Virus record (IMG/VR): IMGVR_UViG_2671180294_000008
Length of the DNA stretch: 4,095 bases
From: a virus
Lineage: Duplodnaviria; Heunggongvirae; Uroviricota; Caudoviricetes
Reading direction: 5' to 3' (one strand)
In this document: in pieces, positions 1 through 4,095 of the stretch
How positions within the stretch are numbered: the first letter of the stretch is position 1
How the letters are laid out: each line of letters begins with the position of its first letter
The notes under the pieces: model-generated
What the model saw: the letters and a program-made list of their open reading frames with translations, nothing else
Database searches by the model: none
What the model was told of the DNA's origin: nothing
Made by a program: the position numbers and the translations under genes

Positions 1-137
1 TAACAGGTGTCTGGAAATATAGGGGCAAATCCAGCGTTCATCAGCCCCCGCATTGCCGACAGGATCACAGACGGGGGGCGCAACTGGTTGTCGTTCAACT
101 GGCCCAGCTACCGTTCTTGTATCAGAGGTGTGGCTGC

Positions 138-1529
138 ATGACAACACCAGTCTGGCGTAATGATGACCTGGAAGGCGCTGTCATTGGCGCATTCTTTCTG
201 CGTGGGGCAGATCATGAAGTGATGGATATTCTGATCACACTACCGGCGGACATTTTTTCTGTACGAGCGTATCGGGATATCTACACAGGCATCTGCAGAC
301 AGGCCCGTGTTTCAGGAGTGATTGACCCCGTGCTGTTGTGTAATGAGATGCCGGAACTTGCCCCGGTGATTACTGATACCGGGCGTAAAACCTGGGTGAA
401 GTCTTCACTGGAGCACTATGTTGCAGCGTTGCGGCGCAATGCCGCACTGCGCGATGCAGAAAAAACACTGAATGAGGCGCTGCAGAAATTACGTGATGCG
501 CATACCTGTGAAGCAGCTGAAGATGCCCTGAAGGATGCGCAGAACATGATGGTCACACTGTCGACAGGAAAGGGCGTCATTCAGCCGGTACATATTGATG
601 ATGTGCTTCCGGAAGTGGTTGAGCGTGTTGAATGCCGGAATCAGGGGCTGGAGAAATCCAGGACGTTGATGACCGGTATTGATGAACTGGACGCAAAAAC
701 AGGCGGTATGGAGCCCGGAGACCTGGTATTCATTGCCGCCCGTCCTTCGATGGGGAAAACCGAACTTGCGCTGGACATCATCGACAAGGTGACTGAGCAG
801 GGGCATGGTGTGCTTCTGTTCACCATGGAGATGGCGAACATCCAGATTGGTGAACGTATGGTGTCTGCGGCTGGAGGGATGCCAGTATCACGCCTGAAAT
901 CTGTGGCTCACTTTGAAGATGAAGACTGGGCGCGTTTCTCACAAGGGGTGGGGCGGATGACCGGGCGCAATATCTGGATGGTGGACCAGGCGAACCTGAC
1001 CATTGATGAGATATGCGCAACAACGAAACACCATCTGATTAAACATCCGGAAACGGCGCTGGTGGTGGTTGATTATCTCGGGCTGATAAAAACCCGAACC
1101 ACGGGGCGTCATGACCTTGCCGTGGGTGAAATCTCAAAGGGGCTTAAAGGCCTGGCAAAATCCGGTGGTTTTCCGTTGATTGCGCTGAGCCAGCTCTCCC
1201 GCGGTGTGGAGTCCAGACCCAATAAACGTCCCATGAACTCAGACCTGAAAAATTCCGGAGAAATAGAGGCGGATGCAGACATCATTCTGATGCTTTACAG
1301 GGATGAAGTGTACAACCCGGATACACAGGCTACAGGCATAGCAGAAATTAATATCACGAAACAACGTAACGGTTCTCTGGGGACGATTTACCGGCGTTTT
1401 TATAACGGACATTTTCTGCCTGTGGACCAGGAAAGCGCACAGGTTCTTTCCACCCCAATGCGGCAGCCCCAGCCGCGCAGATACAGCAATACACGTACCG
1501 ACAGCAGTAAGATGGAGCGTTTCTTTTGA
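138..1529 (+). CDS. DnaB-family replicative DNA helicase, phage-encoded (lambda P position / P22 gp12-like)
   Basis: Long ORF in frame 3. Translation carries DnaB signatures: N-terminal LEGAVIGAFF (cf. DnaB LEAEQSVLG), Walker A AARPSMGKT (nt 735-761), Walker B-like LVVVDYLGL, the H3 block ALSQLSRGVESRPNKRPMNSDLKNSGEIEADADIILMLYRDEVY, and GIAEINITKQRNGSLGTI. ATG at 138 chosen over the track's TTG at 117 because it forms an ATGA overlap with a frame-1 stop; the frame stays open to the window edge so the true start is not certain. Stop TGA 1527-1529. Confidence 0.9.
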   Translation: MTTPVWRNDDLEGAVIGAFFLRGADHEVMDILITLPADIFSVRAYRDIYTGICRQARVSGVIDPVLLCNEMPELAPVITDTGRKTWVKSSLEHYVAALRRNAALRDAEKTLNEALQKLRDAHTCEAAEDALKDAQNMMVTLSTGKGVIQPVHIDDVLPEVVERVECRNQGLEKSRTLMTGIDELDAKTGGMEPGDLVFIAARPSMGKTELALDIIDKVTEQGHGVLLFTMEMANIQIGERMVSAAGGMPVSRLKSVAHFEDEDWARFSQGVGRMTGRNIWMVDQANLTIDEICATTKHHLIKHPETALVVVDYLGLIKTRTTGRHDLAVGEISKGLKGLAKSGGFPLIALSQLSRGVESRPNKRPMNSDLKNSGEIEADADIILMLYRDEVYNPDTQATGIAEINITKQRNGSLGTIYRRFYNGHFLPVDQESAQVLSTPMRQPQPRRYSNTRTDSSKMERFF

Positions 1530-1700
1530 ACAACCAGACAATGACTTTTACCTCTGAACAATTGCGTAAACACGCGCAGGAAATGTTGCGACAGGCGGAA
1601 CAACTGGAAAAAACAGGTGTAACAAAAGATGCCATTCGTCGGGATATGGTGCCAGCGCTCAGGGAACTGATGCAGGCGAAACATCGCGCACAAAAAGCGG
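1467..1700 (+). repeat. Diverged direct repeat, copy A (helicase 3' tail plus 5' part of small gene), truncated by the N-run
   Basis: Aligns by eye with 1866-2098 at roughly 85-90% nucleotide identity; the block around the helicase stop and small-gene start (about 1503-1552 vs 1901-1950) is identical in both copies. Confidence 0.85.
1526..1700 (+). CDS. Small helical (coiled-coil-like) hypothetical protein, paralog A; partial, 3' end lost in N-run
   Basis: ORF begins at TTG 1526 with GGAG (1514-1517) 8 nt upstream; alternative ATG at 1541. The 58 resolved codons are 54/58 identical in amino acid to paralog B. The track's fusion to 1927 is an artifact of translating N as X. Confidence 0.55.
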
Positions 1701-1865
1701 NNNNNNNNNNNNNNNNNNNNNNNNNNNNNNNNNNNNNNNNNNNNNNNNNNNNNNNNNNNNNNNNNNNNNNNNNNNNNNNNNNNNNNNNNNNNNNNNNNNN
1801 NNNNNNNNNNNNNNNNNNNNNNNNNNNNNNNNNNNNNNNNNNNNNNNNNNNNNNNNNNNNNNNNN
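1701..1865. other. Run of 165 N (unresolved or masked sequence; assembly/scaffold gap)
   Basis: Directly visible: 165 consecutive n characters. Content and true length unknown. Confidence 0.95.
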
Positions 1866-2098
1866 GCAATCCGCGCAGATACAGTAATAAACGAACTGAC
1901 AGCAGTAAGATGGAGCGTTTCTTTTGAACAACCAGACAATGACTTTTACCCCTGAACAATTGCGTAAACACGCGCAGGAAATGCTGCGTCATGCTGAACA
2001 ACTCGAAAAAACGGGCATAACAAAAGACGCTATCCGTAAAGATATGGTACCCGCGCTTCGGGAACTGATGCAGGCGAAGCATCGCGCACAGAAAGCAG
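1866..2098 (+). repeat. Diverged direct repeat, copy B (helicase-tail-like remnant plus 5' part of small gene)
   Basis: 1866-1927 encodes ..NPRRYSNKRTDSSKMERFF-stop, matching the helicase C-terminus ..QPRRYSNTRTDSSKMERFF-stop at 1470-1529; it is followed by the same small-gene start context as copy A. Confidence 0.85.
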
Positions 2099-2181
2099 TA
2101 GATGAGCTGGTGGACTGTGTGGCAGAGCTGGAAACCAGAGTCGGAAAGTTTGAAAAACTGGTGCAGGAGGTGCTGCGCTGA
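1924..2181 (+). CDS. Small helical (coiled-coil-like) hypothetical protein, paralog B (85 aa from TTG 1924; 80 aa if ATG 1939 is used)
   Basis: Complete ORF; GGAG at 1912-1915 lies 8 nt before TTG 1924; stop TGA 2179-2181 shares its A with the rusA ATG. Product is rich in E/K/Q/L/A with heptad-like spacing. Differences from paralog A are mostly synonymous (16 synonymous vs 4 non-synonymous codon differences in 58 codons), which supports real coding. No family recognised. Confidence 0.65.
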   Translation: MNNQTMTFTPEQLRKHAQEMLRHAEQLEKTGITKDAIRKDMVPALRELMQAKHRAQKAVDELVDCVAELETRVGKFEKLVQEVLR

Positions 2182-2552
2182 TGCGCCATGAGTTTATTTT
2201 ACCTTATCCGCCGACGGTGAATACTTACTGGCGACGTCGTGGCAGCACATATTTTGTATCAAAAGTTGGTGAGCGTTATCGCCGTGATGTGACGCTAATT
2301 GTTCGCCAGCAGCGGCTGAAATTAAACCTGTCCGGAAGGCTGGCGATAAAGATTATTGCAGAGCCACCGGATAAGCGCCGTCGTGACCTGGACAATATCC
2401 TGAAAGCACCACTGGATGCGCTGACGCATGCCGGACTACTCATAGACGACGAGCAGTTTGATGAAATCAATATTGTGCGCGGTCAGCTCGTTCCTGGTGG
2501 GCGACTGGGCGTGAAGATTTATGAAATCACAGGTGATAACGATGGCGCGTGA
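2181..2552 (+). CDS. rusA: RusA-family Holliday junction resolvase (crossover junction endodeoxyribonuclease)
   Basis: 123-aa product with RusA hallmarks: [15 protein letters not shown] (cf. E. coli RusA LPWPPSNNRYYRHNRG), [29 protein letters not shown] (acidic catalytic cluster, cf. [29 protein letters not shown]) and [16 protein letters not shown] at 2166-2170 sits 10 nt before ATG 2181. Position between the replication genes and Q is typical of lambdoid nin regions. Confidence 0.88.
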
Positions 2553-2928
2553 TATTCAGCAGGTTATGGAACGGTGGGGGGCTTGGGCTGCAAACACTCA
2601 TGAAGATGTATCCTGGGCGTCGATCGCTGCTGGTTTTAAAGGGTTAATTCCGTCGAAAGTGAAATCACGCCCTCAGTGTTCTGATGATGATGCAATGATA
2701 ATTTGTGGCTGTATGGCCCGGTTGAACAAGAAAAATCAGGATTTGCACGATTTGCTGGTGGATTATTACGTAGGTGGAATGACTTTTATGAGTCTGGCAC
2801 GGAAACATGGGTGTTCGGATACCTGTATTGGCAAGCGCCTGCAGAAAGCGGAAGGGGTTATTGATGGCATGTTGATGATGCTTGATATCCGGCTGGAGAT
2901 GGACAGATACGTAGAACGAATTATGTAG
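2542..2928 (+). CDS. Q-type late-gene antiterminator, compact about 128-aa Cys-rich family (resembles the short Q of E. coli cryptic prophages, e.g. QuuD-like)
   Basis: ORF ends 2928 immediately upstream of a promoter-like element, the canonical Q/pR' arrangement. Product [17 protein letters not shown]... contains C-x8-CGC and GCSDTC cysteine clusters (putative Zn site). ATG 2542 preferred over the track's 2521 because AGGTGA (2531-2536) lies 5 nt upstream; this gives an 11-nt overlap with the rusA stop. Family assignment is from memory of similar short prophage Q proteins, not a search. Confidence 0.72.
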
Positions 2929-2932
2929 GTGC

Positions 2933-2962
2933 TTGACCAGACACATTGTCCGGGGCTATATT
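2933..2962 (+). promoter_or_regulatory. Sigma70-type promoter, candidate late promoter pR' (Q-utilisation region)
   Basis: -35 TTGACC (2933-2938), 18-nt spacer, -10 TATATT (2957-2962), starting 5 nt after the Q stop codon. Predicted TSS about 2969. Confidence 0.5.
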
Positions 2963-3023
2963 CCTCACGCGCCAGCAAAATCTGGCGTCGGGATTGGAAC
3001 CCCGGATAGAGACCGCGACAGAC

Positions 3024-3048
3024 ACACGCCGCGAGCGTGTTTTTTATT
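3024..3048 (+). terminator. Intrinsic terminator, candidate tR' (ends a roughly 75-80 nt pR' leader RNA)
   Basis: Stem ACACGC (3024-3029) / GCGTGT (3035-3040), 5-nt loop CGCGA, followed by TTTTTATT (3041-3048). Confidence 0.5.
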
Positions 3049-3173
3049 GTCGTATGCACGCGCACATCTGAATTATGGTGGGGCGCATGGGGGAGCTGAA
3101 AAGCTCGCCGGTCGGTTTCCCGGTAGTTCCAACCCTGTGCGTCTCACCACCCGATGATTGGAACCTGACGGTG

Positions 3174-3202
3174 TTGACAGTTTCAGGTTTGCAGTTTACA
3201 TT
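3174..3202 (+). promoter_or_regulatory. Sigma70-like promoter candidate upstream of the ORF6N gene
   Basis: Perfect -35 TTGACA (3174-3179), 17-nt spacer, -10 TACATT (3197-3202; 4/6 to consensus, with A2 and T6 conserved). Confidence 0.4.
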
Positions 3203-3237
3203 TCCCCGCGGTGCTCAAAACACCTCGAAAGCGGTAT

Positions 3238-3265
3238 CCACACCCGATAGCCATGTGGTTTTTTT
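3238..3265 (+). terminator. Weak hairpin plus T7 tract (possible attenuator or leader terminator)
   Basis: CCACA (3238-3242) / TGTGG (3254-3258) with an 11-nt loop, followed by TTTTTTT (3259-3265). Stem is short and the loop large, so terminator activity is uncertain. Confidence 0.3.
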
Positions 3266-3408
3266 GTGTCCAGAATTCTTGGTTTATGACCGGGTGTGCG
3301 GCTAATACAATACCAGCAATGGAAATACGCCCGCCGACTTTCGACGGTTTTGAGCGCCCGGTCACCCTCTCAAAAGGGGTAAATCAAAATATTCGAAAGG
3401 ACATGTCT

Positions 3409-3972
3409 ATGAATCGCACGTCTATTGAAAAACTCCCGTCACTTACGCATAACCATCTTCCTGTCATGACAACAGAGCTGCTGGCTGATTTGTACGGAAC
3501 AGAGCGCCAGCGTTTGACAAACAATTTCAATCGAAACAAAGAACGGTTTATAGAAGGTAAACATTTTTTCCTGATAGAAGGTGATGCGTTACGAGAGTTG
3601 AAGAACGAAAACTCTTTAAGAGTTTCTGTGAAAATTGCCCGTAACGTTCGCTCCCTCATCCTCTGGACAGAACGTGGCGCAGCCCGTCACGCCAAAATGC
3701 TCGAAACCGATCAGGCGTGGGAAGTGTTCGAAAAACTGGAAGACTGTTATTTCAACCAGAAACAGCCACCAGCGGCACAAAACACATCTATCGAAAATGA
3801 TGGATGCGCATTACTGAGCCACTTCGATAAACACGGTCAGGTTGAGTTCACGGAAAAGGTACCCGCCGATGCGATGGTATGTACTCTGGAACGGTTTAAA
3901 TTTTATCTGGAGCAACACGGGTGGATCGTTGCCCGTAAAGAGCAACTGGTGGAGCGGTTGATGCGGTTTTAA
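3409..3972 (+). CDS. ORF6N-domain (KilA-N-related, antirepressor-like) protein with uncharacterised C-terminal half; moron in the Q-to-lysis position
   Basis: ATG 3409 has AAGGA (3397-3401) 7 nt upstream; the track's start at 3211 and the in-frame ATG 3403 lack a usable SD. The N-terminal roughly 95 aa show the ORF6N pattern LADLYG..(x)..NFNRNKERFIEGKHFF.L.G..L..(x)..LWTERGA..AKML..D.AW. Stop TAA 3970-3972. Domain call is by eye. Confidence 0.68.
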   Translation: MNRTSIEKLPSLTHNHLPVMTTELLADLYGTERQRLTNNFNRNKERFIEGKHFFLIEGDALRELKNENSLRVSVKIARNVRSLILWTERGAARHAKMLETDQAWEVFEKLEDCYFNQKQPPAAQNTSIENDGCALLSHFDKHGQVEFTEKVPADAMVCTLERFKFYLEQHGWIVARKEQLVERLMRF

Positions 3973-4047
3973 AAATTTTTTCCGAAAACTTTACGATCGT
4001 AAAAAGTTGAATATCCTGTTAAGAGTGGTTACTACGCCACACAGCTT

Positions 4048-4073
4048 AAACCCGCCGATGAGCGGGTTTTTTT
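4048..4073 (+). terminator. Strong intrinsic (Rho-independent) terminator
   Basis: AAA-CCCGC (4048-4055) / GCGGG (4062-4066) GC stem with 6-nt loop CGATGA, followed by T7 (4067-4073); 76 nt downstream of the ORF6N stop. Confidence 0.75.
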
Positions 4074-4095
4074 ATACCTGAAAAACGGCACAGGA

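Follow-up and report, generated by a model that had tools for sequence, protein, structure and literature searches.

The window, meaning the whole 4,095-nucleotide (nt) stretch of viral DNA analysed here, opens with the end of a multicopy IS3-family insertion sequence (positions 1 to 33) and then carries a series of phage genes on the plus strand. The first of these, intact, encodes a DnaB-like replicative helicase of 463 amino acids (138 to 1529; Pfam DnaB_C, E = 7.8e-73). It is followed by two copies of a small 85-aa gene, by rusA (2181 to 2552; Pfam RusA), by the gene for a Q antiterminator (2542 to 2928; Pfam Phage_antitermQ), and by an ORF6N-domain gene (3409 to 3972; Pfam ORF6N). The first copy of the small gene, designated hypA, is represented by its 5' part, 175 of 258 nt (1526 to 1700), whereas the second, hypB, is a full ORF (1924 to 2181). 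Between them lies a scaffold gap of 165 N at exactly 1701 to 1865, the single non-ACGT stretch in the window. A tRNA scan of the window found none.

The original prediction placed this N-run at the junction of a duplicated unit, and the flanks of the gap are indeed paralogous. Positions 1471 to 1700 match 1869 to 2098 at an offset of 398 nt, with 88.3% identity over 230 positions and no indels. At the remaining offsets between 380 and 419, identity is 20 to 34%, so the match at 398 nt is far above chance. Comparison with related prophages, of two types that we call X and Y, resolves the window into X sequence (1 to 1700), the 165 N, Y sequence (1866 to 2158), a stretch shared by both (2159 to 2241), and X sequence again (2242 to 4095).

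Prophage X is the type found on records that encode the helicase and RusA of the window residue for residue, as retrieved by exact-protein look-ups; each of these exact proteins is encoded on many records, chromosome-length ones among them. Such look-ups list near-identical places once, and Shigella sonnei Ss046 and similar genomes were viewed solely in this way. The X set consists of 20 loci from 17 distinct assemblies, among them that of S. sonnei 53G (HE616528.1; PMC5447701). The gene order in X is IS3-family transposase, helicase (463 aa), one 85-aa (or 80-aa) gene, RusA (123 aa), Q (128 aa), and ORF6N (187 aa), with the Q gene uncalled in two loci (L015 and L027). Positions 1 to 1700 of the window are 100% identical over their full length to 15 X loci, for example to L014 (3864 to 5563). 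Four further X loci are 100% identical where they overlap this segment, one of them beginning at window base 36 and three carrying an extra insertion in the helicase gene, and one more differs by a single gap. On the other side of the N-run, 2159 to 4095 shows no mismatch to L014.

The left edge of the X sequence is formed by the insertion sequence. Positions 1 to 33 have 100% matches in 3046 of 5426 complete Escherichia coli genomes, at up to 39 places per genome, under features annotated as "IS3 family transposase," and the X loci have HTH_Tnp_1 and rve ORFs immediately upstream. We presume that this element resembles IS2. E. coli relatives of the prophage align from window base 34 only, and where X has the insertion sequence these relatives have a gene for a DnaC-like "ATP-binding protein" before the helicase. 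By this replacement, prophage X is truncated upstream of the helicase gene and probably defective.

The second prophage type, Y, was retrieved with the exact 85-aa protein encoded at 1924 to 2181. Its gene order is helicase, or an IS-truncated 125-nt helicase tail, followed by the 85-aa gene, RusA (124 aa), and Q (273 to 284 aa). Window positions 1866 to 2241 are 100% identical to Y-type loci (L002, from 4943). The Y-specific part of this segment, 1866 to 2158, comprises the last 62 nt of a Y-type helicase gene (1866 to 1927) and most of hypB, and has 36 mismatches against X. This 293-nt block is present once in nine of the ten Y loci; the 20 X loci all lack it. The 83 nt that follow (2159 to 2241), which span the end of the 85-aa gene and the start of rusA, are identical in X and Y and form their longest exact match in the region; the switch from Y back to X lies somewhere within them. 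X and Y are found on the same chromosome-length record, in the same orientation and about 1.6 Mb apart, in both CP104423.1 (L002 and L022) and CP045526.1 (L008 and L026), and the extra copy in the window is traceable to this co-resident, paralogous prophage.

In most Y loci, the helicase gene is cut to its 125-nt tail by an IS end adjoining an IS21-family element (L002, about 4667 to 4879 and 4880 to 5004), while the full 463-aa helicase is kept in the Y-type loci L005 (3613 to 5004) and L011. Taken with the insertion sequence at X, these truncated tails show that both prophages of the lineage are IS-damaged at or near the helicase gene. The helicase and rusA-Q halves of the window had been suspected of coming from different prophages; this does not hold, as 1 to 1700 and 2159 to 4095 are both 100% identical to contiguous X sequence and only about 293 to 376 nt are foreign. 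The helicase, rusA, Q, and ORF6N genes can be trusted as parts of a single, ordinary lambdoid prophage of the S. sonnei type that is truncated by an IS.

The X loci permit a direct test of the duplication. Every one of the 20 X loci has 144 nt between the anchors 1641 to 1700 and 2242 to 2301. The window has 542 nt there, exactly 398 nt more. After position 1700, all 20 loci continue with an identical 60 nt (TGGATGAGCTCG...AAAAAA) that has no match in the window. The single-copy X candidate sequence, composed of window 1 to 1700, TGGATGAGCTCGTTGATTGTGTGGCAGAGCTGGAAACCAAAGTTGGAAAGTTTGAAAAAA, and window 2159 to 4095, is 3697 nt long. In homologous coordinates, the left flank of the gap ends at X 1700 and the right flank begins at the equivalent of X 1468, giving a 233-nt overlap. 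The N-run therefore stands for no missing sequence, and there is no place in it for the second helicase-like gene that, it had been suggested, it might hide.

The same single-copy state is seen more widely. Of the complete E. coli genomes, 19 cover 80% or more of window 1200 to 2400; in all of these the corresponding span is 801 to 803 nt, 398 nt shorter than the 1201 nt of the window, and is annotated as helicase, one hypothetical protein, and RusA. The repeat period of 398 nt that had been proposed thus corresponds to a repeat present in no other assembly examined, and a PCR with primers near 1300 and 2300 would be expected to yield about 0.6 kb from a single-copy locus, rather than the anticipated product of about 1.0 kb. 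The arithmetic offered for the gap was nearly right as a count, with 83 nt needed to finish copy A, 82 nt left over, and a "helicase tail" of 144 nt, but it has no evidential weight because any N-run of at least 83 nt would fit. The accompanying caution that the length of the gap is uninformative stands.

The window is an X/Y/X mosaic, and the locus is single copy in 17 other assemblies. We conclude that the apparent duplication is most likely an artifact of assembly and not biology, and we think it probable that it is a false duplication that arose in the assembly or scaffolding of a genome with two related lambdoid prophages, X and Y. An assembly problem involving two similar prophages had been anticipated in the original prediction, and the mosaic together with the 20 single-copy X loci upholds it. 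A gap between two copies is a recognized hallmark of false duplications (Ko et al., Genome Biol 2022, PMC9516828). Here, an N gap separates the copies, independent and better assemblies have no second copy, and the extra copy is traceable to a paralogue that shares a genome with X in CP104423.1 and CP045526.1. Moreover, the two copies are not each other's closest relatives, as copy B is 88% identical to copy A and 100% identical to prophage Y elsewhere.

We infer the following order of events. The real locus would be X with one 85-aa gene, reading IS3-family element, helicase, 85-aa gene, rusA, Q, and ORF6N. The right-hand contig would be X from rusA onward, its left end having been extended leftward through the shared 83 nt (2159 to 2241) and then along Y reads (1866 to 2158) instead of X. 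As the identity between this Y-type end and the X-type end at which the left contig stops (1700) is just 88%, the 233-nt overlap would have gone undetected by the assembler, and the scaffolder would have placed 165 N between the contig ends. The sole X sequence missing from the window would then be the 60 nt after 1700, and the true stretch would be 398 nt shorter than shown.

Some observations speak against this reading. The edges of the N-run (1700 and 1866) lie off the exact-match runs common to X and Y, whereas a simple de Bruijn-graph break would be expected to leave contig ends at such runs; a break of this simple kind was rejected, as the edges and the repeat boundaries do not coincide. 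In addition, 165 is no conventional placeholder length, and a true overlap of 233 nt should have led a scaffolder to a negative gap estimate. Lastly, most drafts of the lineage assemble straight across the region (contigs L020, L021, and L029 to L031), which implies a source assembly out of the ordinary in its method or coverage.

These points leave room for three alternatives. One is a real heterologous tandem in a single strain, where a segment derived from Y and made up of the helicase tail and hypB would have been placed behind X's own 85-aa gene. Such a tandem would take one homologous exchange within 2159 to 2241 and one illegitimate join under the N-run, and its period would be 398 nt if the N length is literal. 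The N-run might in that case be a length-preserving mask over contiguous sequence. The clean offset of 398 nt without indels, the location of the N-run edges away from repeat boundaries, and a gap length that is no placeholder value, and so could be measured or length preserving, are all in keeping with it. Nevertheless, we consider a real tandem improbable. The arrangement is absent from 17 of 17 independent assemblies with identical flanks and from 19 of 19 full-coverage E. coli genomes, and two recombination events are needed, one of them illegitimate. That copy B is identical to a prophage elsewhere but differs from copy A by 12% is not what a simple duplication would leave. With this degree of divergence and no exact run longer than 83 nt, a real junction should have assembled, yet there is no base of sequence for the head-to-tail junction between the copies: it would fall within the N-run, which replaces exactly the only sequence able to prove a tandem.

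A search for both gap flanks with a spacer of 150 to 180 nt, a pattern outside which other spacings fall, gave no match in three collections (species-representative genomes, IMG/VR, and JGI metagenomes). Recurrence in related genomes, by which a genuine tandem might be known, is likewise lacking: none of the 20 X loci and none of the 19 full-coverage E. coli genomes has the arrangement. If true, the tandem would be a snapshot of a small phage gene duplication through prophage-prophage exchange.

A chimeric join of two real loci by repeat collapse deserves more weight, though we judge it unlikely. The second locus, which could stem for instance from gene conversion of Y by X, would combine a Y-type left part (IS, helicase tail, and hypB) with X-type rusA-Q-ORF6N; the right part common to both loci would have been assembled once, and the X-type left contig set before it with an N spacer. 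The join across the N-run would still be false, while the Y-to-X junction at 2159 to 2241 would be real. Consistent with this, the right block passes unbroken from Y-specific to X-specific sequence across the 83-nt identical stretch, a natural site of recombination, and the left contig stops 60 nt short of it. Mosaicism is typical of lambdoid prophages, and one locus in IMG/VR, L032, joins hypB to yet another rusA allele. However, among the places listed, hypB is always followed by the 124-aa Y-type RusA and never by the 123-aa X type. Furthermore, X and Y have the same orientation and are 1.6 Mb apart, so that a simple crossover would cause a 1.6-Mb deletion or duplication, and the hybrid could come only from a conversion tract of 1.85 kb or more.

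The hybrid is found in no record searched beyond the short junction itself. An exact 108-nt pattern over the Y-to-X switch (2140 to 2247) is absent from species-representative genomes and JGI metagenomes and has one match in IMG/VR, L032 (IMGVR_UViG_2526164651_000008). This locus was rejected as the same hybrid, since its rusA is a different allele that soon diverges, the match as a whole is 93.8% over 468 nt, and it has no N-run. A BLAST search with the hybrid block 1866 to 2560 against complete E. coli genomes and phage records returned nothing above 95%, and the best full-length match, at 95%, is an ordinary Y-type locus. Overall, the searches of species-representative genomes, JGI metagenomes, IMG/VR, phage records, and complete E. 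coli genomes yielded no record with the tandem or with this Y-to-X hybrid locus.

L032 has features of its own. At 6723 to 7190, its Y-type 85-aa gene is cut on the 5' side by a further insertion sequence of the IS3 family, with minus-strand ORFs of 272 and 100 aa lying immediately upstream, and the third rusA allele joined to the gene carries an in-frame stop. L032 is a further case of IS erosion of the same module.

A mixed sample or population could also place diverged alleles side by side. Here, X variants with the X allele and with a Y-converted allele would have formed the arms of a bubble that were laid in series around the N-run. Diverged alleles in tandem around a gap, or heterotype duplications, are the commonest kind of false duplication described in PMC9516828, but this scenario is unnecessary, as Y is already a separate prophage in genomes of the lineage, and a converted X locus occurs in 0 of 20 X loci; we regard it as very improbable. 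Under every alternative other than the real tandem, the adjacency across the N-run is false.

The mechanical ORF list has four ORFs that span the gap, at 1354 to 2082, 1400 to 1939, and 1659 to 1931 on the minus strand and at 1526 to 1927 on the plus strand, and each passes through a block of residues written as X, of which it is largely made up. Their earlier dismissal as artifacts was correct. The read-through ORF at 1526 to 1927 exists only because 398 leaves a remainder of 2 on division by 3, which sets the helicase-tail frame in register with that of the 85-aa gene. An exact look-up found this ORF, with its X residues, nowhere on record. Copy A is 83 nt short (to 1783) where it meets the N-run, and the X loci carry those 83 nt.

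The X and Y alleles of the 85-aa gene differ at about 29 of 258 nucleotides yet at only 6 of 85 residues (window 1526 to 1700 and 1924 to 2181; L014, 5389 to 5646), which suggests a genuine protein-coding gene under purifying selection. The protein matches no Pfam family above threshold and gives weak coiled-coil-like matches only. The gene overlaps the stop of the helicase gene at its own start (TTGA) and the start of rusA at its own stop (TGATG), suggesting translational coupling. Some annotations begin the gene at an internal ATG, giving 80 aa.

Downstream of Q, four Rfam matches above gathering scores lie on the plus strand between 2956 and 3371, in the region earlier called a "moron": c4-a1b1 targets (2956 to 3008), isrK (2969 to 3045), C4 antisense RNA (3071 to 3154), and sRNA-Xcc1 (3288 to 3371). 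The ORF6N gene (3409 to 3972) follows. Together, the sRNA region and this gene presumably resemble an sRNA-plus-antirepressor module of the P1/P7 immI-like or Gifsy-1 isrK type. Terminator-like hairpins are located at 3024 to 3040 and 4048 to 4069, and promoter-like sites at 2933 to 2962 and 3174 to 3202.

Known systems provide points of comparison for both the locus and the proposed artifact. Phage phiP27 and Stx1a-converting phages share the gene order, have a single small ORF, and match window 1200 to 2185 at about 93%, but in them Q comes immediately after the small ORF, without rusA. E. coli prophages likewise have a single small ORF, in the order helicase, hypothetical protein, RusA. The Y-to-X switch within an 83-nt identical stretch at a gene boundary is like the mosaic recombination that takes place at short conserved stretches between co-resident lambdoid prophages. 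Real mosaic exchange, however, swaps modules and does not leave two alleles in tandem with an unsequenced junction, and this hybrid is in no independent record.

The false duplications described in PMC9516828 share with the window similar copies side by side around a scaffold gap, the lack of a second copy in better assemblies, and the resulting false genes and chimeric ORFs. They differ in that they concern diploid vertebrates, in which the extra sequence represents the other haplotype or a copy full of errors, whereas the genome here is haploid and the copy is borrowed from a paralogous prophage elsewhere on the chromosome.

The value of the finding is one of quality control only, and it has no bearing on open questions in biology. 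A literal reading of the window implies that a phage gene is duplicated, that a remnant of a helicase gene is present, and that there are several long ORFs, none of which is likely to exist. Recognizing the X/Y/X mosaic keeps a spurious gene gain and a spurious "tandem repeat" out of annotation and comparative analyses.
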